Positions 20,154 through 33,012 are shown, counted from the stretch's first letter. The stretch: DNA of 64,000 nt from Candidatus Acidiferrales bacterium (GCA_050018375.1 JBEKAE010000010.1:48808-112807), one strand, 5' to 3'. Translations and numbers: made by a program. Notes: generated by a model not told the origin, from the sequence alone.

Positions 20154-21695
20154 CTAGGAACTGCGCACCGCGGGCACTGCGGGTGTTTCTTCTTTCGCGG
20201 TTTCCTTCGCTGCGGTTTCCTTCGCGGCAGCCTCTTTCGCCGTAGCTTCCTTGGCCGCCGCTGCCGTCTTTGCCGCTTCTTTCGAAGCTGCGGAACGCGA
20301 GCCGCGTCCGGAATCGAGATTGAACTGGCGCATCTTGTAGAGCAGCGCCTTGTAGCTGATCCCAAGCATCCGCGCCGCATCCTTGCGGCACCAGTTCGTT
20401 TTTTCAAGCGCGTCGGCGATGGCTTCCATTTCGGCTTCGTCCTTCAAGCCGCGCACGAGCGCTTTGAGGCCCTGTTCCTTGGGCGCAGGCGTCTCTTCGC
20501 GAGGCGCTATGCGCTGCTGCTGCCCGGTCATATCGAGAAGCTCGCGGAAGCTGCCTTCGTCATCTTCGAGGATGACGTAGCGCTTCACGAAATTTTCAAG
20601 CTCGCGCAGGTTGCCGGGCCACGGATAACGCAGCGTGGCTTCGAGCAGATGTTTCGAAGGATCGGGCGCCGCCTTCTGGTATTTTTCGCTGTACTTGGCC
20701 AGGAAGTGGCGGAAAAGGAGCGGAATTTCCGCCGTCCGCTCGCGCAGCGGCGGGATGTGGATCGAGAGGACGTTCAGCCGGTAATAGAGGTCTTCGCGGA
20801 AGCGCCCGGAACGCATGGCGTCCTTCACGTCCATATTGGTCGCCGCCAGAACGCGGACGTCCACATTGACGACCGCGCGTGCGCCCAGACGTGAATACTG
20901 GCCGTCCTGCAAAACGTGCAGGAGCTTCGCCTGAAGGTGGGGGCTCATCTCGGCGATTTCGTCGAGGAAGATCGTGCCCTTGTTGGCGAGCTCGAACTTG
21001 CCGGGCTTCGCGCGCACGGCGCCCGTAAAAGCGCCCTGTTCGTAGCCGAAAAGCTCCGATTCCAGCAGTTCGCCCGGCAGCGCCGCGCAATTCACTTTGA
21101 CAAAGGGCTGATGCAGGCGCGTGGAGCGCAGATGGATCATGCGGGCAACGACTTCTTTACCGACTCCGCTTTCGCCGCTGATGAAAACCGGCACATCGAC
21201 GGGCGCAATTTGCAGAATCTGCTGCCGGATCTTGAGCATTTGCGGGCTGGCCGCGAGGAAGGAGATGTCCTCGGTCAGAGCCTCGCAATATTCGCGCAAC
21301 GCCTGGTTTTCCGAACGCAGTTCCTTCTTCTGGTGGCACTTGAGAAATGCCGCGTCGAGCTCCGGCTTCTCGAACGGCTTGGTCAGGTAATCGATCGCGC
21401 CGAGCCGGATCGCTTCGACCACCGTCGTCACTTCGTTCGAGCACGAGAGCATCAGGACGTTGAGCGAGCGGTCCACCTGCATCAACTGCTTGAGCGTCTC
21501 GATGCCGTCCATTTCGGGCATGAGGACGTCGAGAATGATGAAGTCGGGCCGCTCTCCATCGCCGATCCGCTTGAGGGCTTCCTTGCCGCTCGCGAGCGTC
21601 TCCACCTCGAAGCCGTCTACTTCGAGCAGCGTCTGGAGATACTTCCGGATGCTCGGTTCATCGTCCACGACCATGATCTTTTCTTTGTTCGCCAT
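20154..21695 (-). CDS. NtrC-family sigma54-dependent response regulator
   Basis: Canonical receiver (IMVVDDEPSIR...DFIILDVLMPEMDG...YLTKPF). AAA+ module (VFISGESGVGKEVVARMIH, GAFTGA, WPGNLRELEN). Fis-type HTH, then an Ala/Lys/Glu-rich tail of ~50 aa. Confidence 0.9.
   Translation of the reverse strand: MANKEKIMVVDDEPSIRKYLQTLLEVDGFEVETLASGKEALKRIGDGERPDFIILDVLMPEMDGIETLKQLMQVDRSLNVLMLSCSNEVTTVVEAIRLGAIDYLTKPFEKPELDAAFLKCHQKKELRSENQALREYCEALTEDISFLAASPQMLKIRQQILQIAPVDVPVFISGESGVGKEVVARMIHLRSTRLHQPFVKVNCAALPGELLESELFGYEQGAFTGAVRAKPGKFELANKGTIFLDEIAEMSPHLQAKLLHVLQDGQYSRLGARAVVNVDVRVLAATNMDVKDAMRSGRFREDLYYRLNVLSIHIPPLRERTAEIPLLFRHFLAKYSEKYQKAAPDPSKHLLEATLRYPWPGNLRELENFVKRYVILEDDEGSFRELLDMTGQQQRIAPREETPAPKEQGLKALVRGLKDEAEMEAIADALEKTNWCRKDAARMLGISYKALLYKMRQFNLDSGRGSRSAASKEAAKTAAAAKEATAKEAAAKETAAKETAKEETPAVPAVRSS
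20197..20256 (-). repeat. 15-bp coding tandem repeat (about 4 units) in the 3' end of the NtrC-family gene
   Basis: GCGGTTTCCTTCGCT / GCGGTTTCCTTCGCG, then two degenerate units. It encodes the AKE(A/T)A repeats (..AKEATAKEAAAKETAAKETAKEE..). Confidence 0.7.
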
Positions 21696-21730
21696 CGTTT
21701 TTACCTATGGAGCGAGATTTCCCGCTCAGT

Positions 21731-22936
21731 TTACTCGACGTAGGTGGGTAGCAGGAAAGAAAACGTGCTCCCGCGGCCCTCCTCGCTGTTTACCCAGACC
21801 TTTCCGCGATGCGCCTGGATCAATCGCTTCGTGATTGCCAGCCCCAGGCCCATTCCCGATGAAGAAGGATCGACGCGCACGAACTCTTCGAAGATCTCCT
21901 GGTGAAACTCAGGCGCGATCCCGTTGCCCGTATCCGTGACGGAAACCAGGACGCTATTCGAGCGCCGGCCGTTGTCGCGCCGCCGCTCATCCGAAGGAGA
22001 CGCGTCCGCAACGCGCCGTTCCCAGAAGTGCGGCTGAGCTACCAGCGTCACCGATCCGTTCGCCGGCGTGTGCTTGAGCGCGTTATCGATCAGATTGAAG
22101 ATGCACTGCTGGACTTTTTGGTAATCGAACTTGAACAGCGGCAGGTCCGGGTGAATCCGGACGTCGAGACGCACGTCCGCGCGTTGGAACCCATCCTGCC
22201 AGCGGCCCGCCAGATCGTTGATGCAGTCGCGGAGATCGTTCTCGCACAATTGCAACACGAGCTTGCCGCTCTCCAGCGCGGAATAGTTCAGGAACATCGA
22301 CACGAGGCGCACCAGCCGGTCGCAGCTTTCTTTCGATTCCTGCAAAATCTCCCGTTGCCGGTCGCTGAGTTTCCCGAGAGAACCCGAGAGCAATAGATCG
22401 TTGTAGCCCTTCATTACGGCGAGGGGCGTTTTCAACTCGTGCGCGGCCGACGCGAGCAAGACCGTCTTCTGCCGGTTCGCTTCCTGAAGACGCAGGTACG
22501 CGGCCAGAAGATTCCGGTACGTGATTTCTCTTTCCTGCAGCAACTCCTGGACGGTCTGGCGCATTTGCGCCTCGTCCGCGGGAGCTTCGGTGGGTGATGG
22601 CTCGATGTAGACGGCGAGCCAGTCCGGTTCCGGCAGCCAGCGAATTCGCGCTCGGGACTTGCCCTCCGGGGATTCGAGCGGAAGGCTGACTTCCTGCTCG
22701 CCCCCCTCCAGTTGTCCCAGGATTCCTTTGCGATCGGCGTGCAGAATGTCTCGGAAGAGGTTTGCGTCCGGCTTCCCGCCCCATTGCAGCATCTTCAGGG
22801 CGTTCTGCGCGTGGAGATTGGTGAAGAGGATCTGCCCGCCGCGGTCCGCCACCAGCAGTGGACGATCCAGAGCGTCCAGCAGGCTTGCGACCAGTTGAAA
22901 ACTCGCCTGGCCGCTCGTCTGCTTTTCGGCTGTCAT
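21731..22936 (-). CDS. cytoplasmic sensor histidine kinase (PAS-like N-terminus, HisKA, HATPase_c)
   Basis: H-box AAHELKTPLAVMKGYNDLL. N/G boxes (IDNALKHTP, VTDTGNGIAPE, GMGLGLAI). No clear transmembrane helix. Start taken at MTAEKQTSG (22936). It ends 35 nt upstream of the response regulator gene. Confidence 0.85.
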   Translation of the reverse strand: MTAEKQTSGQASFQLVASLLDALDRPLLVADRGGQILFTNLHAQNALKMLQWGGKPDANLFRDILHADRKGILGQLEGGEQEVSLPLESPEGKSRARIRWLPEPDWLAVYIEPSPTEAPADEAQMRQTVQELLQEREITYRNLLAAYLRLQEANRQKTVLLASAAHELKTPLAVMKGYNDLLLSGSLGKLSDRQREILQESKESCDRLVRLVSMFLNYSALESGKLVLQLCENDLRDCINDLAGRWQDGFQRADVRLDVRIHPDLPLFKFDYQKVQQCIFNLIDNALKHTPANGSVTLVAQPHFWERRVADASPSDERRRDNGRRSNSVLVSVTDTGNGIAPEFHQEIFEEFVRVDPSSSGMGLGLAITKRLIQAHRGKVWVNSEEGRGSTFSFLLPTYVE

Positions 22937-23209
22937 GCTTTTCGCCAACTCGCCCTCCGACGGCTCCGGATCACAGGCTAAAGACACCACTCTCTTGCCT
23001 GCCGAGAGAATCGAGTGGGGATGGTCTCGAAGAGCCGTATGCTCGCAAAAGGTAGCAAGTAGTGTCAATGGTAAAAGCGTCCTACGTTTGCACAATCGTG
23101 GAAATGAATTGCAGCAAATGGGCACATTTCAATGGAGTCGGCCGCTTGGCGGCTGGCACACGGCTCCGTAGGATGCTGATAATAGGTCGCTTATTGGGAC
23201 GCCTTGAGG

Positions 23210-23225
23210 GGGCCTAGAACTTGCA
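23210..23225 (+). promoter_or_regulatory. sigma54 (-24/-12) promoter candidate for PilZ-2
   Basis: GGGCCT-AGAAC-TTGCA has GG and TTGC at consensus spacing. It lies 40 nt upstream of the ATG at 23266, in an AT-rich spacer. Confidence 0.55.
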
Positions 23226-23265
23226 AGAAAATTGGCGTCTAATTAAGTACTAATACTTGGGTACC

Positions 23266-23625
23266 ATGAGCATTAAGGAAAATGTCGTCGATCAGAAGAT
23301 AGCGGTGCCCCTATATGACGAGCGCCGGCGTTTCCAGCGCATCCGTCTCCAGGTGCCCCTGTTCATCCGTGGCCGAGACGTGCACGGCGAGCAGTTCATG
23401 GAGCTCGCTAAGACACTGGATATCAGCGCCATAGGGGCCTTCCTCGCTTGTCCCAGGGCACTGTCGATGAATCACATCGTGACGCTGACGATCCCGGCGC
23501 CATCCATAATCTCTTCCGGCCTAGTTCCGGCGGGGATGCCACCGATCCAGGCGCGCGTGAAAAGACAGCAGGAAGCTGGAGAAGTGCACCTAGTCGGCGT
23601 TGAATTTCTGAAGCCAATTGGCTGA
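23266..23625 (+). CDS. stand-alone PilZ domain protein (PilZ-2)
   Basis: RxxxR (ERRRFQR) and DxSxxG (DISAIG) motifs. 119 aa from the ATG at 23266 (alternative TTG at 23257). Confidence 0.8.
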   Translation: MSIKENVVDQKIAVPLYDERRRFQRIRLQVPLFIRGRDVHGEQFMELAKTLDISAIGAFLACPRALSMNHIVTLTIPAPSIISSGLVPAGMPPIQARVKRQQEAGEVHLVGVEFLKPIG

Positions 23626-23718
23626 GAGTTTTCCACAGACCTTCGACCACCAGCGACAGCCCACTGAGCCAAAAGTGGAACCGCTTTTCCGCTTTTCGCG
23701 CAGGGGGATACAATCCTC

Positions 23719-23744
23719 GCCGTCCGAAACGGCCTAATTTTTTT
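23719..23744 (+). terminator. rho-independent terminator candidate after PilZ-2
   Basis: GCCGT-CCGAA-ACGGC stem-loop (23719-23733), followed after 4 nt by T7 (23738-23744). Confidence 0.5.
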
Positions 23745-23793
23745 CTTGGCAGCGACTTACAGCTGCGTCTTGGGTTAGATTCTTCTCCGGGAT

Positions 23794-23809
23794 TGGACTG
23801 TCCCTTGCT
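23794..23809 (+). promoter_or_regulatory. sigma54 (-24/-12) promoter candidate for the GGDEF-PilZ gene
   Basis: TGGACT-GTCCC-TTGCT lies 66 nt upstream of the ATG at 23876 and downstream of the PilZ-2 terminator candidate. Confidence 0.55.
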
Positions 23810-23875
23810 ACAGTCTTGCTGCCCCGCAGGGACTCCTGATTTCAGGGTAGGTTAGATTCTATTCGGAATCCATTG

Positions 23876-25120
23876 ATGCCCCAGCCCGGCGACGCTTCCC
23901 AGCCGCAGCCATCGGCCGAGGACTCCTTCCTGGATCTGCTGGTAGAGACTCTGGAAGGACTCGACGATTCCGCCCGCGGACAATTCCTGCGGCAATTCTT
24001 CCGCACAGTCGCACAGATCGATCTCCCCGAGACAGAGAGCAACGAGTATTGGCGGCAGATTCTCCAGCGGCGCCGCGAACTCTCCGAAAGCCTCGGAAGA
24101 AAAGTCTCTCTGGCGACCTCCTTGGTGGATGTGCTTGCCTCGACGAATTTTCTGCGCATTCCGATCTTGATGGAGTACGACGATTTCAAGAAACTGCAAA
24201 TCAACGCCGCCACCGACGGGCTGACCGGACTTTACAATCGCCGCCTTTTCGACGAGTACTGCGAGAAGGAATTGAACCGCGCCAAGCGCTACAACCATCA
24301 CCTCGCGATCGTCATTCTCGATCTGCACAAGCTCAAGGAAGTGAACGACCGCCACGGCCATCTGCGGGGCGATCAGGTGTTGCAGCTCGCCGCCACAACG
24401 TTGCGCAAGACGCTGCGCGCTTCCGACTTTGCCTTTCGCATCGGCGGAGATGAATTTGCGCTGCTCCTGCCGCTGACCGACCCCGAACAGGCGGTCACGC
24501 TCTGCCGGCGCGTCCGCACGCTCTACGAAAGCGACGTTCGCCCGCTGAAACTCGATGTTGGAGTGACGCTTGATTTTGGCGTGGCCGTCCATCCGCAGGA
24601 CGGCGATCAAAAGAGCGACTTGCTGCGCACGGCGGACGAAAGACTCTACGAATTGAAGCATTCGGGCCGCACACCGCGCGTCATTCCGATCGAGCCGTAT
24701 CCGCCGCGCGAACCGGCCGCAGCTCCGGCGCCGGCTCCGGTCGCCCCGTCCGTGCCGCCTGCACCTGCGCCGGCCCCAACTCCGGCACCTGCGCCCAGCG
24801 TTGTCCCCGGCCCCCCGCCGCATATCGAGCGCCGCAAGTGGGAGCGCGTGTCGCTGGCAGGGACGAAGGCGCACGCAATCCTCACGGATGTCGGCGAGAA
24901 AACCGCGAAGGTGGATGTCGGCCAGAAAACGGCGAAGGTAATCGACCTGAGCTATGGCGGCGTGGCCCTCCTGTTCGACCGAACGGAAGAGCTCCCCGCT
25001 CAATTCCACGCGGTTCTTCACGTGCCGATTCTGCCGCCCGTTCGCGTCGTCTTGCGCAAGGTATACACGCTGCGCGGTGACGACGGCCGCATGCGCGCGG
25101 GCTGCTCCTTCGTTTCCTAG
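23876..25120 (+). CDS. diguanylate cyclase (GGDEF) fused to a C-terminal PilZ domain
   Basis: TDGLTGLYNRR...RIGGDEFALLL is an active-site GGDEF. I-site RASD sits 5 aa upstream of it. A Pro/Ala-rich linker follows (PAAAPAPAPVAPSVPPAPAPAPTPAPAPS). Then a PilZ domain with RRKWER and DLSYGG. Confidence 0.85.
   Translation: MPQPGDASQPQPSAEDSFLDLLVETLEGLDDSARGQFLRQFFRTVAQIDLPETESNEYWRQILQRRRELSESLGRKVSLATSLVDVLASTNFLRIPILMEYDDFKKLQINAATDGLTGLYNRRLFDEYCEKELNRAKRYNHHLAIVILDLHKLKEVNDRHGHLRGDQVLQLAATTLRKTLRASDFAFRIGGDEFALLLPLTDPEQAVTLCRRVRTLYESDVRPLKLDVGVTLDFGVAVHPQDGDQKSDLLRTADERLYELKHSGRTPRVIPIEPYPPREPAAAPAPAPVAPSVPPAPAPAPTPAPAPSVVPGPPPHIERRKWERVSLAGTKAHAILTDVGEKTAKVDVGQKTAKVIDLSYGGVALLFDRTEELPAQFHAVLHVPILPPVRVVLRKVYTLRGDDGRMRAGCSFVS
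24887..24940 (+). repeat. 27-bp in-frame tandem duplication inside the PilZ domain
   Basis: GATGTCGGCGAGAAAACCGCGAAGGTG / GATGTCGGCCAGAAAACGGCGAAGGTA, 24 of 27 nt identical. It encodes DVGEKTAKV / DVGQKTAKV directly before the DLSYGG motif. Confidence 0.9.
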
Positions 25121-25207
25121 TGCCGCGATAGTCTCGCGCTGGAAAAATCGCCCTTGCCGGGTTACCATACGGCTTCGTTCCGGCCCGCCGACTGAGTTGG
25201 ACGTCCC

Positions 25208-26101
25208 ATGGCGCTTACAATGTCTGCACCTACAAGTCTTCCTCCAAAGCGAATTGGCTTCGAGACCTGGATGGATCGTGCGCTCGAGCGAGCCGAACAG
25301 GTGCAGCCCGGCTGGGACGCCGACGACGTTCACGATCTGCGGGTTGCGCTCCGGCGCTGCCGGACCATGGCGGATGCCTTGAGCGAAGTGAATCCCGGCT
25401 CCGGATGGCGCAAGCTCAAGAAAGCCAGCCGCGAGGTTTTTCACACTCTGGGCGATCTCCGCGACGTCCAGGTCGAGCGGGCCTGGGTTCGGAAGCTGGG
25501 GACTCCGGGCGATCCGGTGCGAAAGCACATGCTGCGGCTGCTGTCCGGCGAGGAAAAGAAGCACCGGCACAGCGCGGAGCAGGCGCTTGACGCCTTCGAC
25601 CGCAAAGAGTGGAAGAAGCTGACGAGGAAGCTCGCGTCGAAAGCGGGCTTTTTCCCGGTCGAGAGCGTCGTCTTTCAACGCCTGGCCCTCGGCAGTTTGA
25701 ACCGCGCCGTCGAGCTTTACGGGCAAGCTCGGAAAAGACGGACCAGCATCGCCTGGCACCGGCTGAGGATCGGAATCAAGAGCTTCCGCTATATCGTCGA
25801 AAACTTCCTGCCGCAGCGGTACGAGGTCTGGGCCGACGACCTGAAGCGCATGCAGGACCTGCTGGGCGAAGTGCACGACATGGACGTGCTGCGAAGCAGG
25901 ATTCGGAAGGAAGCCTCGAAATTCAATCCCGCCGTCATTGCCCAGTGGATTGACAGAGTCGAAGCTGAACGCAAGGCCCGCCTCCAGGAGTTCCTTGCGA
26001 AAACCTCTGGACCGCAGTCTCCGTGGCTCACGTGGCGCGCCGGATTTCAGTGGGGACACGCGCCGGTCGCCGCGTCATTTCCGCAGCGGCGCACGGCCTA
26101 A
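25208..26101 (+). CDS. CHAD domain-containing protein
   Basis: Repeated helical His/Arg motifs typical of CHAD (VHDLRVALRRCRTMADAL, LGDLRDVQV, WHRLRIGIKSFRYIVE, LGEVHDMDVL). Confidence 0.75.
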   Translation: MALTMSAPTSLPPKRIGFETWMDRALERAEQVQPGWDADDVHDLRVALRRCRTMADALSEVNPGSGWRKLKKASREVFHTLGDLRDVQVERAWVRKLGTPGDPVRKHMLRLLSGEEKKHRHSAEQALDAFDRKEWKKLTRKLASKAGFFPVESVVFQRLALGSLNRAVELYGQARKRRTSIAWHRLRIGIKSFRYIVENFLPQRYEVWADDLKRMQDLLGEVHDMDVLRSRIRKEASKFNPAVIAQWIDRVEAERKARLQEFLAKTSGPQSPWLTWRAGFQWGHAPVAASFPQRRTA

Positions 26102-26109
26102 CTGAAACG

Positions 26110-26604
26110 CTAGTCCCCCAAGTCGCGCAGCACCTTCGGAGTGAGAATCCAGCGCAGCTCCCAGCGGCTATGCGCCGTGGCCTGCTCGAAGCAGGCAGCG
26201 CCCGCTTTCTTCAGCATAGTAAAAGCGCCCCGCGCGCCCGCCAACTGCGCGATCAACAGGTCCACATGGGGCGCGTGGCCAAAACACGCCACCTCTTTCG
26301 CTTTCAAATGCGAGATTTCCTTCAGAATGTCGGCGGGATTTTCAGCCGGCTTCAGAGACTCGCTCACGCGGATTTTGTCGAGGGGGAATCCGAGCGCTTC
26401 GGCAAAAATCTCCGCCGTCTGCGCCGCGCGGACAAACGGGCTGGTGATCATAACGTCCGGCTTCGCGCCCAGCGCGCGCAATCCAAGCGCCGCGGACCGC
26501 GTCTTCTGCACTCCCCGCGCCGTCAGAGGGCGTTCGGCTTCGGCCGGGGCTTTGGGATCGGTGCGATCGACGGCGATGCCGTGACGAACGAGATAGAGGA
26601 TCAT
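26110..26604 (-). CDS. sixA: phosphohistidine phosphatase SixA-type (histidine phosphatase superfamily)
   Basis: MILYLVRHGIAV (RHG motif)...RPLTARG...ITSPFVRAAQTAEI...FGHAPH. 164 aa. Confidence 0.8.
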   Translation of the reverse strand: MILYLVRHGIAVDRTDPKAPAEAERPLTARGVQKTRSAALGLRALGAKPDVMITSPFVRAAQTAEIFAEALGFPLDKIRVSESLKPAENPADILKEISHLKAKEVACFGHAPHVDLLIAQLAGARGAFTMLKKAGAACFEQATAHSRWELRWILTPKVLRDLGD

Positions 26605-26607
26605 GGC

Positions 26608-28167
26608 TTACGCAACCTTTTCCCTTCGTTGGGCGCGCCGGAATTCGGCTTTGAGGTGGAACTCTTTCTCGAACAGCGCGGCTTTGCGTTCGAGCCCGGC
26701 GACGTCGAGCCGCGTTCCTTCGGCCGCCCGGATCAGGAAGATCGCGCGATGTCCCGCGATCTGCACGTCCACGCCCGAGACGCGCTGCGCGTGCTCCGAT
26801 TCGAGCTTTTCTGCGATCCGCAGCAGCGACGTCAGCAGGCGAACCTCGCGCCGGCGCGAGCCGTCGAGGGCCGCATAAGATGCGTGCTCGATCTGCGGCT
26901 CGGACTTGCAGTTGTGATAACGCACGAGCGCCCCGACCACGTCGCGCCGCCATCCGCCCAGCGCGGGTATTTCGCTGTTGCGGATCAGGTATTCACCATG
27001 GCGGTTGTGCGATTTGCGGTGGACGAAATGCCCAATGTCGTGCAGCAGCGCGGCCACTTCCAGCAGAAGGCGCAGGTCCGGCTCCATTTCGTGAATCGGG
27101 CGCAACTGATCGAAAAGTGAAAGCGCCAGGCGCGAGACCTGGTCGGCGTGCTGCGGGTCGTAATTGAGCTTCCGCGCGAACCACCGCGCCCCGGCCAGCA
27201 GCTCCGCCGCGCGGCCCTTTTCTTCCTCCGACGCCTCTCCGCCCGAATACTGTTCGGCAAGGATGTCGAGCAGCAATCCCTCGCGCACGCCGACTCCGGG
27301 GACCAGCATCGACCGCAGGTCGAGCCACTTCGCGACCGTCGTGATGATGATCGCGGCGATCCCCATCACTTCCGCGCGGTCCCTCCGCACGCGAAACGCC
27401 CGCACTCGCCCGGGCACGTCCAGCCGCAGGAGCCGCCAAGTCTGGTCCCGCAGCAGCCGCACGTTGATCGTCGGCGTTCTCCCAACCATCGGGCCCGCGG
27501 CGAGCCGCACGAGCGCCTCGGCGTTTCCTCCGCACGCGACCGCGATCGCGCGCGAAAGCTTCGGCGGGTTCGGCATCGCGCTGCGCAGCAGCGCCAGCAC
27601 GTGCATCCCCAGCCGCCGGACGTTGTCTTCGTCGATCGCGCCCTCGATTGAATACGTCTCCATCAGCCGGATCGTGCCGAGCGGCAGGGCGATGCGCTGC
27701 TGGAGCGCACCGCGCTCGAAGAAATTCATCTCCAGGCTGCCGCCGCCGAGATCGAAAATCACGCGCGGCTGAATGTTTTCGCCGAGCGCCCAGCGCACGG
27801 CCGAGCAGACCAGCCGCGCTTCTTCCTCGCTGCCGATCACCTCCAACTCGATCCCTGATTTCCGTCGGATGCGCTCCATCAGGCGCCGGTAATTGCGCAC
27901 CTCGCGGGCGGCGGCCGTAGCGACCGCGCGGTACGCGGTGACGTTAGCGCGGTCCATGCGGTCGCGGAAATACCGGAAGACGCGCGCGGCCTGCGAAATC
28001 GTCTCGTCGTCGAGCAAGTGCCGCGTGAACGCGTTGTGGCCCAGGCGCACTGCGGCGCGTTCGGTCTCGAGAAACTGGATCTGATCCGGCGAAGTGGCGC
28101 GCGCGATCACCAGGCGGATGGCGTTCGAGCCCGCGTCGATCGCTGCCAGTTGTACGGGGGCGGCCAC
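26608..28167 (-). CDS. ppx: exopolyphosphatase / guanosine pentaphosphate phosphohydrolase (Ppx/GppA) with C-terminal HD domain
   Basis: AAIDAGSNAIRLVIA, DLGGGSLE, then an HD region (LHDIGHFVHRKSHNRHGEYLI). GTG start at 28167, 3 nt after the stop of the upstream gene. Its stop lies 3 nt before the sixA ATG. Confidence 0.85.
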   Translation of the reverse strand: MAAPVQLAAIDAGSNAIRLVIARATSPDQIQFLETERAAVRLGHNAFTRHLLDDETISQAARVFRYFRDRMDRANVTAYRAVATAAAREVRNYRRLMERIRRKSGIELEVIGSEEEARLVCSAVRWALGENIQPRVIFDLGGGSLEMNFFERGALQQRIALPLGTIRLMETYSIEGAIDEDNVRRLGMHVLALLRSAMPNPPKLSRAIAVACGGNAEALVRLAAGPMVGRTPTINVRLLRDQTWRLLRLDVPGRVRAFRVRRDRAEVMGIAAIIITTVAKWLDLRSMLVPGVGVREGLLLDILAEQYSGGEASEEEKGRAAELLAGARWFARKLNYDPQHADQVSRLALSLFDQLRPIHEMEPDLRLLLEVAALLHDIGHFVHRKSHNRHGEYLIRNSEIPALGGWRRDVVGALVRYHNCKSEPQIEHASYAALDGSRRREVRLLTSLLRIAEKLESEHAQRVSGVDVQIAGHRAIFLIRAAEGTRLDVAGLERKAALFEKEFHLKAEFRRAQRREKVA

Positions 28168-28170
28168 TCT

Positions 28171-28998
28171 TTAGCGCCAGAGGTGCGCGAGCGCGTGCGA
28201 AGGCTTGTAGTGCGTGCTCCGGATGCCCAGATGCGACGCGATGCGCTTGCGCAGCACCCGGTTCACCTCCGAGACGCTTCCTTCGCCGTCCAATTCGATG
28301 AATCCGTGCCGTTTCGAAAGATATTCGAATTCCCGCTTGATCAGCGACTGGTAACGAATGAACGATTGGAAGAGGTCGTTCGAAAGCGACATGTCGCGCC
28401 CCGACTCCCAGTAGCTGATCGTCTGCGACTTCTTGAACTCGCGGTCAAACGCCACTTCCGGCCGCACGTTCAGCCAGAAGGTCAGGTCCGGACGCAGCGC
28501 GATCTCGTAAATCCCGTGCAGGTAGTCGCGCCCAATCCCGCGGACCGCCGCGCGCGCGATCAGCGTGAAGATATAGCGGTCGGCGAGAACAATCAACCCC
28601 GAACGCAGCGCCGGCAGAATCCGCCGCTCGAGCTGGTCGAAAAAGTCGGTGCTGTACATCAGCGCCAGCGTCATGCGCGTCACCGCGTTTTCCGCGAGCA
28701 GCGCGTCGATGTCCTCGCCCACCAGGTACGACCGCCGCAGGCCCATCGTCTGGACCGCGAAGCCTTCTGATTCAAGCCATTCGGTGAGCAGCGAAATCTG
28801 CGTCGAGCGGCCCGAGCCGTCCGTTCCCTCGACCACAATCAGGCTGCCGCTGAGTTCCTCGGGCTTGATTCCCGGCAGCGGGATTCCGTAGAAACGCGAA
28901 GCGAGGTCGTTGTGTCCGTTCTTCCCATTCTTCGACGCCTTCGCGCGATGCCCGTTGGGCGAAACGGCGGGAGCGGAATTGGAGCGGGTGCGTTTCAT
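28171..28998 (-). CDS. thymidylate kinase-like P-loop protein 2 (Walker A Lys replaced by Arg)
   Basis: LIVVEGTDGSGRSTQ (Tmk-type P-loop, but GR instead of GK) and VLADRYIFT (DRY/DRH motif). The REPGGT-type dTMP-binding motif is absent. Basic N-terminal tail of ~50 aa. ATGA start/stop overlap with the upstream gene. Confidence 0.65.
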   Translation of the reverse strand: MKRTRSNSAPAVSPNGHRAKASKNGKNGHNDLASRFYGIPLPGIKPEELSGSLIVVEGTDGSGRSTQISLLTEWLESEGFAVQTMGLRRSYLVGEDIDALLAENAVTRMTLALMYSTDFFDQLERRILPALRSGLIVLADRYIFTLIARAAVRGIGRDYLHGIYEIALRPDLTFWLNVRPEVAFDREFKKSQTISYWESGRDMSLSNDLFQSFIRYQSLIKREFEYLSKRHGFIELDGEGSVSEVNRVLRKRIASHLGIRSTHYKPSHALAHLWR

Positions 28999-29729
28999 TT
29001 TTTCTTTGGCGCGAAGTGCGGCAGGTCGATTCGCTCGCCGAGAAGCTGGCGCATCAGCTTCTGAAGCTTGTTCACCCGGAGCGTCCCGTCCATCAGGACG
29101 AAATTGTCCGTCTCGATCATCTGGTCGTAGTTGTTCAGGATGCGCTCCTGGAAGATGCGGAAGCTCTCCGCGCGGTCGAGCGAAATCCCCAGGTCCATCC
29201 CGGCCTCGTAGTATTTCAGCTTCGGCCTCCCGGCGACGATCCGGTTGACGGCCACGTCCAGCGGCGCGCGGAAATAAAACGTGATGTCCGGCACCGGGGC
29301 GAAGCTATAGAGGTTGCGCAGCCAGTGCGGCGAGCAGGCGCGGGCCGCGTCGCGTGCAAACGCCGTATAGATGTAGCGGTCCGCCAGCACCAGATAGCCG
29401 CCGTGGAGCAGCGGCAGGATTTGCCGCTCGCAGCGGTCGGCGAAATCCGCGGCGTGCAGCAGCGAGAAGGTCGTCGGCGTCAGCAGCCGCCGCTGCTTGC
29501 CGCGCCGCGTGGCGGACTTCACCAGCGGCGACGAATTCCACTCCGTGAAATGGATGCGGTAGCCGTTGATTTCGAGCCACCGCTTCAGCAGGTAGAGCTG
29601 CGTGCTTTTCCCCGAGCCGTCGATCCCCTCCACCACCACGAGCGCGCCGGGGTACTGGCGCTTCGCTGCGGCCGCCTTTTCCGGCGCCGGCTGTGCGGCT
29701 GTGGTGATTTCGGGAGTGACCGTGGCCAT
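28995..29729 (-). CDS. thymidylate kinase-like P-loop protein 1
   Basis: LVVVEGIDGSGKSTQ (canonical Tmk-type Walker A) and VLADRYIYT. The REPGGT-type motif is replaced by TEWNSSP. Start taken at MATVTPE (29729). Confidence 0.65.
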   Translation of the reverse strand: MATVTPEITTAAQPAPEKAAAAKRQYPGALVVVEGIDGSGKSTQLYLLKRWLEINGYRIHFTEWNSSPLVKSATRRGKQRRLLTPTTFSLLHAADFADRCERQILPLLHGGYLVLADRYIYTAFARDAARACSPHWLRNLYSFAPVPDITFYFRAPLDVAVNRIVAGRPKLKYYEAGMDLGISLDRAESFRIFQERILNNYDQMIETDNFVLMDGTLRVNKLQKLMRQLLGERIDLPHFAPKKK

Positions 29730-30194
29730 GGGGGCACACCTAGACCCAAAAACCCATGATACTTCCAAACTTTGAATGGAGCATGAAAATTCTGTTACAC
29801 CCGCCTTACCTGATTCGTTATCCCGCGCTTGTTGCGGTCCGGTCGTCCTCGCGGACCGAGCCCGGTCGGTTGACTGGAGGTTCTCTGCTATCGTCTATCA
29901 AAGGTTCATTCTAGGACTTCAAAAAATCCAAAACGGTACATGCGCTTTGTCCTCAGCAAGTTTCTTCGTGCCTTCCGCCTTCTCTGTGCGGGCTTCCGTG
30001 CGCCGTGGAATAGGAAATTAAGGAGTTCTCTTCCGAACGACGGTTGAACTTTGGCGCCCGGCCCCGCGCGGCGTTTTGGAATTAAGCGTGCTCGCCTTGA
30101 AGTGTCGATCGCGGTCTCCCTTCCGACCTGCACAGGCCCCTATTCCAGACTGAGTTGCCCAACACGTGTCTCCACGTGAGGGCCGAGGTGCGCC

Positions 30195-30983
30195 ATGGGC
30201 TTCGGATTAACCGCTACGGTTCGCTTCAAGACCTTGGCAGTCTCCGCACTCGTACTTGTTTTTCCCATCGCCGCTGGCGCAGCGAGCCACAAGTTCGTCC
30301 CCTGTAAGCCGGTAGGCGCCCAGTGTGTCGGCATCGTCGAGCTCTATGACGACGGCGTCTATTGGATCGCGAACCGCGTGGTGAAGGACGGCCGCGAAAC
30401 GTGGGAACCGATCAAGAAAGCGGACTGTCCGAGGGACCAGGATTACCACGAGCGCAAGGCATATGCATGGGACCGAAAGTACGGAGACTACATTTGTGTC
30501 TACGATGAGATCCGGGAGCGCCCCGACCCCGCGACAAAGCGCGGCAAGCTCTTCCGGTACATCGGCACCCACAAAGCCCTTCTTGCGAGTGACGCGACAC
30601 TATTCATTTCCAGCATGGCCGATGCCGCATCGGCAGTACATTGCCAACACGTGAGTTCTTCCTGTCGAGAAACGAACCCCATCCTTGGTCCACATCCCAG
30701 CAGCGCCGGTATCTACGGGACGAAGCTGGGCCTCACCGCCGCGTATATCGGGCTCGACCACTGGTGGGCGTACGAATTCAAGGGACACGAGCCGGACACA
30801 GCCTATCTCTTTTGGTGCGCCTGGCTTGTTGGTCAGAACTACTACGGAACCTTGACCAACATCAATACCGCGAGGGGCGTCCCATCTGCGCAGATTGCGG
30901 TGTGGGGAGATGACCTCGCGGCCGCCCGTGAGCGACTTACGGCCGCCCATGAGCGACTGATGGGGGCCGTTCCGATACCCTGA
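30195..30983 (+). CDS. hypothetical exported/membrane protein
   Basis: Signal-peptide-like N-terminus (TLAVSALVLVFPIAAGAAS). Cys-rich N-domain. Hydrophobic C-half with an ETNPILG motif. No family recognised. Confidence 0.45.
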   Translation: MGFGLTATVRFKTLAVSALVLVFPIAAGAASHKFVPCKPVGAQCVGIVELYDDGVYWIANRVVKDGRETWEPIKKADCPRDQDYHERKAYAWDRKYGDYICVYDEIRERPDPATKRGKLFRYIGTHKALLASDATLFISSMADAASAVHCQHVSSSCRETNPILGPHPSSAGIYGTKLGLTAAYIGLDHWWAYEFKGHEPDTAYLFWCAWLVGQNYYGTLTNINTARGVPSAQIAVWGDDLAAARERLTAAHERLMGAVPIP

Positions 30984-31210
30984 AAACGCAGTTGAGGAAT
31001 CCCGCAGCGAAGGTGCCCGTGGAAGGCCCAGCCGCTCCTTTTTCCATCCGCCTGACCTGAATTGCTCTAGTTCTCTTCGATGCTGACTCGGCAGTCATCC
31101 CCTCGCGCGTCGCTTCTGCCCCTTGCACGGAAGGGACCATCTGATTCGTCCACGCCGAACAGTTCATGCTGTATAATCCCGCAATTCGTTCGGCCCCAGG
31201 GAGGCGCACG

Positions 31211-31495
31211 GTGGCGGAGTGGCAATACGCGCAGGCGGATCCGTCCGACGAGCTGGCTCAGCTCTCCTTCTATTCCATGAAGAAGCGGCAGGGCGGACGC
31301 GACATCGAATTCCGGATCACGGTGAAGGAATTTGTCGAGCGGCCCGCCGGCCAGCACTCGCGGTTCTTCGCCGAAGCGGATAAGCACGTCAACCAGAAGA
31401 CGGCGGCGATCCTTCCTCACGGCTGGGGCAATTCCGTGCTCGAAGCGCTGGCTGACTGTGTGCGCATGATCCGCCAATTTCCGTATGAGGACTAG
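31211..31495 (+). CDS. hypothetical small protein (94 aa)
   Basis: GTG at 31211 with GGGAGG 6 nt upstream. It ends 15 nt before the STAS gene. No motif recognised. Confidence 0.4.
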   Translation: MAEWQYAQADPSDELAQLSFYSMKKRQGGRDIEFRITVKEFVERPAGQHSRFFAEADKHVNQKTAAILPHGWGNSVLEALADCVRMIRQFPYED

Positions 31496-31510
31496 AGGAC
31501 TAGCCAGACG

Positions 31511-31861
31511 ATGAGATTCACAACGAAGCGCGTCGAGCCGGGCATCGTGGTGCTCGAAATGTCGGGCCGCTTCCTGATGGGGCAGGATTGCCATCAGGTT
31601 GACAGCGAAGTCGAGCAGCACATCCTTCGCAACGAGAAGAGCTTCATCTTCGACCTTTCCGCCGTGGACCATATCGATAGCGGCGCCGTGGGGCAAATCG
31701 TGAAGTCCCTGACGAGGCTCAAGAAATCCGGCGGGACGCTGCGCCTCGCGGGAGTCCGCGGCATGGTCGACGGCGTCCTGACGATGACGCAACTGAACCG
31801 CGTGATCGAGATCTTCCCCACCGCCGCCGAAGCCGCCAAGAATTTTCCGCCGGCACAGTAG
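31511..31861 (+). CDS. STAS domain anti-sigma-factor antagonist (SpoIIAA/RsbV-like)
   Basis: 116 aa. VVLEMSGRFLMG...FIFDLSAVDHIDSGAVGQIV...GTLRLAGV is the classic STAS pattern, with a candidate phospho-Ser in DHIDSGAVG. Confidence 0.8.
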   Translation: MRFTTKRVEPGIVVLEMSGRFLMGQDCHQVDSEVEQHILRNEKSFIFDLSAVDHIDSGAVGQIVKSLTRLKKSGGTLRLAGVRGMVDGVLTMTQLNRVIEIFPTAAEAAKNFPPAQ

Positions 31862-32196
31862 CGCCTGCGGGTCCCAAAAGTCCACAGACCCGCACAGTTG
31901 CGCGCCGGCTCGAAATGTGCCACGTTGGGCGCATGATAAGAACCTTGGAAGCTTTGGGGATGACGGAGCCGGGAACGGTATCGCTACCGCCGGCGGTAAA
32001 TTGCCTCGGCGACTTCCGTATCAGTCTGCCCGCGCCCTGCCTTCTACCCGCAACTGGCCGCCGAGTAGATTTCGTTGTAACTCGTTCAAAACAAAGAATC
32101 GGTGTGCCTCTTACCCGCAAATGGAAACGGGGGGTCGCGCGCGCCTCATGCGAGCCGGATTGGTTTGCGGATTGCATTCGCAGAGGGGAAAACTGA

Positions 32197-33012
32197 ATGG
32201 CGACGAACTTCGGCAAAGAACTGATGGTGAAGCCGGGCAAAAAGGTGAAGCTCGCGGACTACGATCCCGAGAACACGCTCGGCTGGGACAAGGGCCACAA
32301 AACGAAGGTGAGCCTCGAAAAGTCGATCGAGCGGCTCGACAAATTGCAATATCTGCTCTACGCCGAGCACAAGCGCGCGCTGCTGATCGTCCTGCAAGGC
32401 CGCGACGCTGCCGGAAAGGACGGCACGATTCGCCACGTCATGACCGGCTGCAATCCGCAGGGCTGCCACGTGACGTCGTTCAGACAGCCTTCGGCCGAGG
32501 AATCCTCGCATGAATATCTCTGGCGCGTGCATGAAGCCATTCCCGAATACGGCGACATCGGAATCTTCAACCGGTCCGTTTACGAGGACGTTCTCGTCGT
32601 GCGCGTTCACAATCTCGTGCCGAAAGAGATCTGGTCGCGGCGCTACAATCAGATCAACGAATTCGAGGAACTGCTGCACGACAATCGCATCAAGATCATC
32701 AAGTTTTTCCTTCACATCAGCAAGGACGAGCAGAAACGCCGGTTCCAGCAGCGCATCGACGATCCCGACCGGCGCTGGAAAATCTCCCAGGCCGATTTCG
32801 ACGAGCGGAAATTCTGGGACGACTACACGGCGGCCTACGAAGATGTCCTTACAAAATGCAGCACGGATTACGCGCCTTGGTTCGTGATCCCCGCGAACAA
32901 GAAATGGTTCCGCAACCTTGCCGTCTCGCACATCATCGCCGAGACGATGGAAAGCATGAACATGAAATTCCCGCCGCCGTCGATCGATGTGAAAAAACTG
33001 AAGTGGCAATGA
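32197..33012 (+). CDS. ppk2: polyphosphate kinase 2 family protein (single-domain PPK2)
   Basis: ALLIVLQGRDAAGKDGTI (Walker A), YLWRVHEAIPEYGDIGIFNRSVYEDVLVVRVH, WFVIPANKKWFRN. Typical PPK2. Confidence 0.85.
   Translation: MATNFGKELMVKPGKKVKLADYDPENTLGWDKGHKTKVSLEKSIERLDKLQYLLYAEHKRALLIVLQGRDAAGKDGTIRHVMTGCNPQGCHVTSFRQPSAEESSHEYLWRVHEAIPEYGDIGIFNRSVYEDVLVVRVHNLVPKEIWSRRYNQINEFEELLHDNRIKIIKFFLHISKDEQKRRFQQRIDDPDRRWKISQADFDERKFWDDYTAAYEDVLTKCSTDYAPWFVIPANKKWFRNLAVSHIIAETMESMNMKFPPPSIDVKKLKWQ

Follow-up and report, generated by a model that had tools for sequence, protein, structure and literature searches.

PPK3 is a heteromeric polyphosphate (polyP) kinase of Sulfolobus acidocaldarius that was described in a 2024 preprint (10.1101/2024.08.28.610084) and in a paper of February 2026 (Höfmann et al., JBC 2026, PMC12995831). 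The enzyme (SaPPK3) acts as a polyP:ADP phosphotransferase/polyP kinase, is reversible and favors the formation of ATP from polyP and ADP; its substrates are polyP and ADP/ATP, and GTP does not serve as donor (PMC12995831). Saci_2019 (cPPK3) is catalytic, and Saci_2020 (rPPK3) is inactive alone and activates cPPK3 about ten-fold when the two are assembled as alpha2-beta2, the stated reason for the inactivity of rPPK3 being replacement of the arginine of the DRX motif (PMC12995831). Neither protein phosphorylates dTMP, a reaction carried out by the third paralogue Saci_0893, and a canonical dTMP kinase was reported elsewhere in all PPK3 genomes (PMC12995831). The published operon has the order sixA-ppx-cPPK3-rPPK3-CHAD, and PPX, SixA, and CHAD were also reported around bacterial PPK3 homologues (PMC12995831). 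Most genomes with PPK3 have neither PPK1 nor PPK2, PPK1 and PPK3 were proposed to have replaced one another in situ, and the ADP and polyP sites are swapped in PPK3 relative to PPK2 (PMC12995831). Acidobacteriota were named among the few bacterial carriers (preprint 10.1101/2024.08.28.610084). Here we describe four genes at positions 26110-29729 of a 64,000-nucleotide stretch of DNA from Candidatus Acidiferrales bacterium (GCA_050018375.1 JBEKAE010000010.1:48808-112807), referred to below as the window. With a convergent CHAD gene and a divergent class III-like PPK2 gene on its two sides, this group very probably represents an acidobacterial (order Acidoferrales) PPK3 operon encoding cPPK3, rPPK3, PPX, and SixA, whose function is assigned by homology with SaPPK3. 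The initial annotation knew of no characterized system of this composition. Since PPK3, its PPX/SixA/CHAD neighborhoods, and its Acidobacteriota homologues had already been reported, the operon is an addition to a published family and not an uncharacterized system.

The four genes are located on the minus strand in the order cPPK3 (Tmk-like 1, TmkL1; 28995..29729, ATG start), rPPK3 (Tmk-like 2, TmkL2; 28171..28998), the exopolyphosphatase gene ppx (26608..28167), and the gene for a SixA-type histidine phosphatase (26110..26604). For TmkL1, a longer alternative with a TTG start at 29768 was judged unlikely compared with the ATG. Reading of the sequence showed an ATGA stop/start overlap between cPPK3 and rPPK3 (28995-28998), a 3-nt gap between rPPK3 and ppx with a GTG start after TAA aga (28168-28170, TAA aga GTG), and a 3-nt gap between ppx and sixA (26605-26607, TAA gcc ATG). 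The genes are predicted from these junctions to be translationally coupled. The arrangement is not due to chance, because the tight junctions and the same string of genes recur in dozens of related loci. Both the junctions and the family labels of the initial annotation (two Tmk-like proteins, Ppx/GppA, and SixA) were borne out, the former by the open reading frames and the sequence and the latter by Pfam and NCBIfam profile searches.

TmkL1 shares 49% identity with the characterized Saci_2019 (E=1e-68) and 47% identity over its full length with STK_15430 (PDB 2plr), from which we infer a thymidylate-kinase fold. For comparison, 80 loci were collected from species-representative genomes of bacteria and archaea, and the S. 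acidocaldarius and S. tokodaii loci were retrieved as well. In a neighbor-joining tree of the c and r products with Saci_2019, Saci_2020, and STK_15430, rooted on true Tmks, the first-gene products formed one clade with Saci_2019 and STK_15430 (bootstrap 99/100). The motifs of TmkL1 are GIDGSGKST with the Walker A lysine, TEWNSS in the place of TREPGG, LADRYIY, and RIVAGRPKLKYYEAG, which carries the lid Arg/Lys. The Walker A lysine was present in 80/80 c subunits and the DRY arginine in 81/81. The columns that mark the c type are the Walker A lysine, TEWNSS, His92, Arg99, and nine basic positions without a counterpart in r; at these nine, 85% or more of the c and fewer than 40% of the r sequences have a basic residue, and TmkL1 is basic at eight of them, the exception being Q79. 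Sequence comparison thus identifies TmkL1 as an orthologue of the characterized cPPK3 and the predicted catalytic subunit.

TmkL2 is 34% identical to TmkL1 and 30% identical to Saci_2020 (E=4e-29). Its assignment to the r type draws on the best tree, in which the second-gene products including TmkL2 formed a clade with Saci_2020 (bootstrap 51/100), on the conserved gene position, and on shared derived residues. The P-loop of TmkL2 keeps its glycine frame, and the invariant Walker A lysine is replaced by arginine (GSGRST; R64). The same arginine was found in 79/80 r sequences, the only exception being Saci_2020, which has lysine. Further r-type signatures are T-x-G-[LI]-x-x-S for TEWNSS, tyrosine for the histidine, and glutamine for the arginine of the c type. 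G86, Y115, and Q122 of TmkL2 are common to the Sulfolobales rPPK3s, and R64 is shared with the r subunit of S. tokodaii. Many active-site residues are common to c and r, and 44 columns are conserved at 90% or more in r versus 82 in c. TmkL2 reads LADRYIF, in which the DRX arginine is not replaced; this arginine was kept in 79/81 r sequences, and DGY occurred only in the two from Sulfolobales. Loss of the DRX arginine therefore looks like a Sulfolobales trait that does not define the family, and the general mark of the r subunit, as far as the aligned sequences indicate, is the change of the Walker A lysine to arginine. The r subunit is probably of a noncatalytic type. The initial annotation had treated the two proteins as equivalent kinases that both retain the P-loop and the DRY motif. 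The DRY motif is indeed present in both and the P-loop is intact in TmkL1, but it is altered in TmkL2, which is of the regulatory type, and the equivalence has to be given up.

An AlphaFold2 model of TmkL2 (score of 84 in pLDDT, the predicted local distance difference test) had its best structural matches among the ST1543 structures, with template modeling (TM) scores of 0.89-0.93, compared with about 0.8-0.87 for canonical Tmk structures. The model thus predicts a thymidylate-kinase fold for TmkL2. Residues 1-50 (28849-28998, minus strand) form an N-terminal extension that is found in the Acidoferrales r subunits and is absent from the Sulfolobus rPPK3. The tail is variable and rich in K/R/N/G/S, with a net charge of +6 across the first 50 residues; residues 1-32 have a pLDDT below 50, indicating a disordered basic tail, and it is followed in Acidoferrales by the conserved motif SRFYG-x-PLPG-x-x-P-E-E-L. 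The extension may be a polyP-binding or docking segment.

Some r subunits of other lineages depart from this pattern. The two Sulfolobales rPPK3s (L081 5621-6253 and L082 5626-6243) both have DGY and differ at Walker A, Saci_2020 having lysine (GIMSSGKTT) and the S. tokodaii protein arginine (GIEGSGRTA); therefore, the inactivating changes may have arisen in steps. The second subunits of a locus labeled 'delta proteobacterium' (L062, 8629-9405) and of a Nitrospiraceae locus (L074, 8698-9423) gave slightly higher scores in blastp (40%) with cPPK3 than with rPPK3. Both are placed at the base of the r clade, with GVGRST and the arginine of DFADR kept, and judging by sequence they may be an intermediate form.

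The retention of active-site residues raises the question of whether the second subunit is silent at all. In a variant PPK3 with two functional sites, r could be a nucleotide-binding sensor of energy charge or could catalyze a second reaction with an acceptor such as GDP or AMP. Outside Sulfolobales, r keeps the DRY arginine (79/81), R149, R153, the lid residue R186, E198, and D202. The residue at the Walker A position is arginine and not a random one in 79/80 sequences, which suggests selection on a phosphate-binding site, and the r proteins are conserved, though less so than c. However, the change from Walker A lysine to arginine usually abolishes phosphoryl transfer in P-loop enzymes, which counts against an active r. 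The basic residues of the polyP cleft are absent from r, the Walker A position is fully degenerate in the r domains of natural fusion proteins (described below), and Saci_2020 is inactive (PMC12995831). On balance, we consider a functional second site improbable.

Several points weigh against assigning the operon to PPK3 with a silent r subunit. The proposed activity is carried over entirely from a single archaeal enzyme, to which the subunits are only 49% (c) and 30% (r) identical. The support for the r clade is modest, coming from a simple neighbor-joining tree, and TmkL2 is 36% identical to the Sulfolobus cPPK3 compared with 30% to the Sulfolobus rPPK3. The reason is the long branch of the Sulfolobales r sequences. 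The published cause of r inactivity does not apply to TmkL2, in which the DRY motif, the lid arginine, and other active-site residues are kept. Finally, a PPK2 gene adjoins the operon, although most PPK3 genomes were reported to be without PPK1 and PPK2.

The association of the pair with polyP genes was conserved across genomes. The c gene was directly followed by the r gene on the same strand in 79/80 loci, the exception lying at a contig edge. Neighbors were counted in the 50 loci flanked on both sides by 4 kb or more, and Ppx was found within 4 kb of the pair in 42/50, SixA in 35/50, and CHAD in 26/50, the last count being limited by the sensitivity of blastp. The linkage with ppx, on which the initial annotation had staked its proposal, is thus conserved. 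The loci are not independent samples, as 36 are from close Acidoferrales relatives. The pattern was also detected in records labeled Verrucomicrobia, Anaerolineales, Thermodesulfobacteriota, Nitrospiraceae, Bacillota, and Pyrinomonadaceae and in Nitrososphaerales archaea, and the Nitrosopumilaceae loci showed the Sulfolobus order SixA-Ppx-c-r-CHAD. A PPK2 gene lay within 4 kb in 13/43 bacterial loci. In many of the closest Acidoferrales loci it was located directly upstream of cPPK3 and divergent, with gaps of about 20-180 nt compared with about 2.5 kb here. Matches to two narrow peptide patterns were obtained in at least 545 species-representative genomes, and homologues with more than 80% identity were very numerous in soil metagenomes. 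These sequence matches indicate that PPK3 is commoner in bacteria than 'a few bacteria' implies. Five loci labeled Dormiibacterota, Limnocylindria, or Dongiaceae (L007, L023, L024, L026, and L035) carried operons 75-88% identical to those of Acidoferrales, which suggests mis-binned contigs and not a real occurrence in these groups. The operon is also carried by the complete genome OY970264.1, from which L001 (91% identical) was taken, and by a named strain, Thermanaerothrix daxensis GNS-1 (L051).

Natural fusions were identified in an exhaustive search of 1.84 billion representatives, which gave 353 proteins with E of 1e-30 or less. Among these were c-r fusions, whose domain order follows that of the genes, and c-r-Ppx-domain-III/HD fusions. 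The r domains of these fusions have His, Thr, or Val at the position of the Walker A lysine, a degeneracy that fits a noncatalytic role. Domains of the cPPK3 type, with the Walker A lysine and T-x-WNSS, were found in SPX-cPPK3-DUF2252 and MFS-cPPK3-DUF2252 fusions, which may be eukaryotic, and in inorganic pyrophosphatase-cPPK3 fusions, one of them within a polyvalent protein with an ART domain. The fusion proteins were P0361, P0372, P0381, P0423, P0439, P0449, P0458, and P0484. The c-r fusions provide indirect support for an association of the two subunits.

The database name of both proteins is 'dTMP kinase', and their being ordinary thymidylate kinase paralogues was considered next. Both match Pfam Thymidylate_kin (E of about 1e-20) and score 83.5 and 83.8 bits against the dTMP kinase equivalog TIGR00041 (cutoff, 83.25); databases apply the label because this cutoff is just passed, and the score does not discriminate dTMP kinase from PPK3. 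A tblastn search of the window with true Tmks returned only the two PPK3 genes and no canonical tmk, which could be taken in favor of a dTMP kinase. However, alignment with the Thermus thermophilus and Staphylococcus aureus Tmks showed that the dTMP-binding segments, namely, the TREPGG-type loop, the arginine after the stacking aromatic ('AADR' position), and S-x-x-YQG, are replaced in both proteins. In searches of PDB, the best E values, to ST1543/STK_15430 (2plr, 5h70), were 4e-60 for TmkL1 and 3e-39 for TmkL2, and true Tmk structures matched at only about 1e-12 to 1e-14. The conserved neighbors of the pair are ppx, sixA, and CHAD and not genes for DNA precursors. The Sulfolobus orthologues have no dTMP kinase activity, which resides in Saci_0893 (PMC12995831). 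The initial annotation had noted the missing REPGGT-type segment and doubted that dTMP is the substrate; both observations agree with these results, and a dTMP kinase function is highly unlikely. The PPK2 profiles (PF03976/TIGR03707-9) did not match either subunit, except for a P-loop-only hit with E=0.0098.

The ppx product is a long-form Ppx/GppA family protein with domain III/HD (Pfam Ppx-GppA, 5e-37; Ppx-GppA_III, 5e-22; HD, 7e-10). Its best NCBIfam match was TIGR03706 (exopolyphosphatase) with 200 bits, under the cutoff of 307, and its best PDB matches were the exopolyphosphatases 8jgo and 7epq. The SixA protein matched TIGR00249 with 75.6 bits (cutoff, 74.5) and His_Phos_1 with 3e-11, and its translation contains the RHG motif at residues 7-9. 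A CHAD-domain gene (25208..26101, plus strand; Pfam CHAD, 1e-28) is convergent with sixA and lies 8 nt from its stop codon. A single-domain PPK2 gene, class III-like (32197..33012, plus strand; Pfam PPK2, 2e-76; TIGR03709, 398 bits), lies 2.5 kb upstream of the operon in divergent orientation. Its PDB matches include 5lc9 (the best, E=3e-89), 5o6k, 6aqe, 6an9, and 6au0, which we take to be class III PPK2s; 6au0 carries the depositors' label 'PPK3 Class III'. The placement of the operon among polyP genes (CHAD, Ppx, and PPK2) in the initial annotation was thus confirmed by the profiles. Pfam scans of 20 flanking genes (14-49 kb of the window) found no PPK1, Pst, or PhoU.

A module of (p)ppGpp or other nucleotide-polyphosphate kinases and phosphatases, with the Ppx/GppA protein acting as GppA, has next to nothing in its favor beyond the pppGpp phosphohydrolases of that family and a weak GppA match (NF008260, 120 bits; cutoff, 624), given that the best matches of the protein are exopolyphosphatases, that the CHAD and PPK2 neighbors are polyP specific, and that SaPPK3 uses polyP with ADP/ATP and not GTP as donor (PMC12995831). 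Of the polyP- or (p)ppGpp-linked nucleotide kinase proposed initially, the polyP part is thus supported by the heteromeric SaPPK3 orthologues, and the (p)ppGpp part is highly unlikely.

Upstream of cPPK3, a promoter-proximal block (29756..29798, minus strand) is conserved 25-70 nt from the start codon, with the pattern GTAACA..TTTTCA..TTCAAAG..GTATCAT. Nothing else could be aligned in the upstream regions of 10 related loci, and the block is unique in the window, where 0.02 chance matches are expected; the exact pattern was found in just one other retrieved locus. Within the block, TTCA is repeated at a spacing of 11 bp, and TATCAT resembles a -10 element. By its sequence, the block may combine a promoter with a response-regulator site, and a resemblance to PhoB/PhoP boxes is speculative. 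A scan with the sigma-70 consensus gave 0 promoter-like sites. Terminator-like sites were at chance level (8 versus 7.9 expected), and a hairpin at 29929-29949 (minus strand) is for that reason not claimed as a terminator. Rfam, applied at gathering thresholds to the entire window, gave no match.

The region between cPPK3 and PPK2 (29730-32196, about 2.5 kb) contains a 262-amino-acid open reading frame (30195-30983, plus strand) without a Pfam match and a gene for a STAS-domain protein (31511-31861, plus strand). On the other side, the CHAD gene adjoins a signaling cluster (20154-25120) that consists of a sigma-54 response regulator (20154-21695, minus strand), a histidine kinase (21731-23125, minus strand), a PilZ protein (23257-23625, plus strand), and a GGDEF diguanylate cyclase (23873-25120, plus strand). 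The C-terminal part of the GGDEF protein, past a proline/alanine-rich linker, has RRxxxR and DxSxxG-like strings that resemble PilZ by eye, with no Pfam call. A 735-amino-acid open reading frame at 23852-26059 (minus strand) was rejected as a high-GC artifact, as it is antisense to the plus-strand genes for GGDEF and CHAD, both with Pfam support.

Orthology, motifs, fold, synteny, and fusions were computed here, and we infer the activity, stoichiometry, preferred direction, and silent role of r from the archaeal enzyme. By this analogy, the P-loop of cPPK3 would hold ATP/ADP, a basic cleft in place of the dTMP site would hold polyP, and the enzyme would reversibly shift the terminal phosphate between polyP and ADP. 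A low ATP/ADP ratio would lead to ATP formation, and polyP would be synthesized at a high ratio only. rPPK3, itself noncatalytic, would join c in a complex (in Sulfolobus, an alpha2-beta2 tetramer) and raise the activity about ten-fold. PPX would remove polyP by hydrolysis, and the CHAD protein would bind polyP granules. A further extension of this scheme is offered tentatively and is itself unlikely. Outside Sulfolobales, r might be a conserved sensor that binds nucleotide or phosphate, has a Walker A arginine with the DRY and lid arginines intact, and determines from the energy charge which way the reaction runs. In Acidoferrales, it would form with the adjacent class III PPK2 one AMP/ADP/ATP-polyP buffering module, and the basic tail of r would anchor the complex on polyP granules.

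These results correct a widespread misannotation, since PPK3 subunits are labeled 'dTMP kinase' in thousands of metagenomic proteins and in the at least 545 genomes mentioned above. PPK3 is common in soil Acidobacteriota and present in several other bacterial phyla and in ammonia-oxidizing archaea, and its occurrence in soil bears on phosphorus and energy storage there. The definition of the family is refined, in that the mark of r is the Walker A lysine-to-arginine change rather than the loss of the DRX arginine; this refinement and the pairing of PPK2 with PPK3 are the main points of interest. T. daxensis GNS-1 is a candidate strain for testing a bacterial PPK3.

Among known systems, bacterial ppk1-ppx operons resemble this locus in their PPX, SixA, and CHAD neighborhood, but the fold of PPK1 is unrelated to that of PPK3. 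PPK2 enzymes (classes I-III) are also P-loop kinases that transfer phosphate between polyP and nucleotides, and two-domain class II PPK2, with its inactive N-terminal domain, combines active and inactive modules in a manner analogous to c and r. However, the PPK3 subunits do not match the PPK2 profile, and the real PPK2 is a separate gene at 32197-33012. The name 'PPK3' in most other literature titles presumably refers to the Ruegeria enzyme of the PPK2 family, and these look unrelated. Canonical Tmk (TIGR00041/PF02223) shares the fold, P-loop, DRY motif, and lid, but its dTMP-binding segments are replaced here, its genomic context is different, and the similarity is just about 1e-12. ST1543/STK_15430 of Sulfurisphaera tokodaii (2plr, 4nzy, 4rzx, 5h70) was deposited as a dTMP kinase and is now regarded as a cPPK3; it differs in being archaeal and thermophilic, with 213 amino acids and without the N-terminal leader of the window proteins. 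The closest system is SaPPK3, from which the locus differs in its bacterial host, in the order c-r-ppx-sixA instead of sixA-ppx-c-r-CHAD, and in the CHAD gene, which is on the opposite strand and convergent. The r subunit has the DRY arginine and a Walker A arginine compared with the lysine and DGY of Saci_2020 and carries an N-terminal extension of roughly 50 residues, PPX has 519 amino acids with domain III compared with 411, and a PPK2 gene adjoins the operon. Common to both are the adjacent Tmk-fold paralogues, c followed by r, in one operon with PPX and SixA and beside CHAD; in both, c has the Walker A lysine, TEWNSS, DRY, and the basic cleft and has lost the dTMP site, and r is without the cleft residues.

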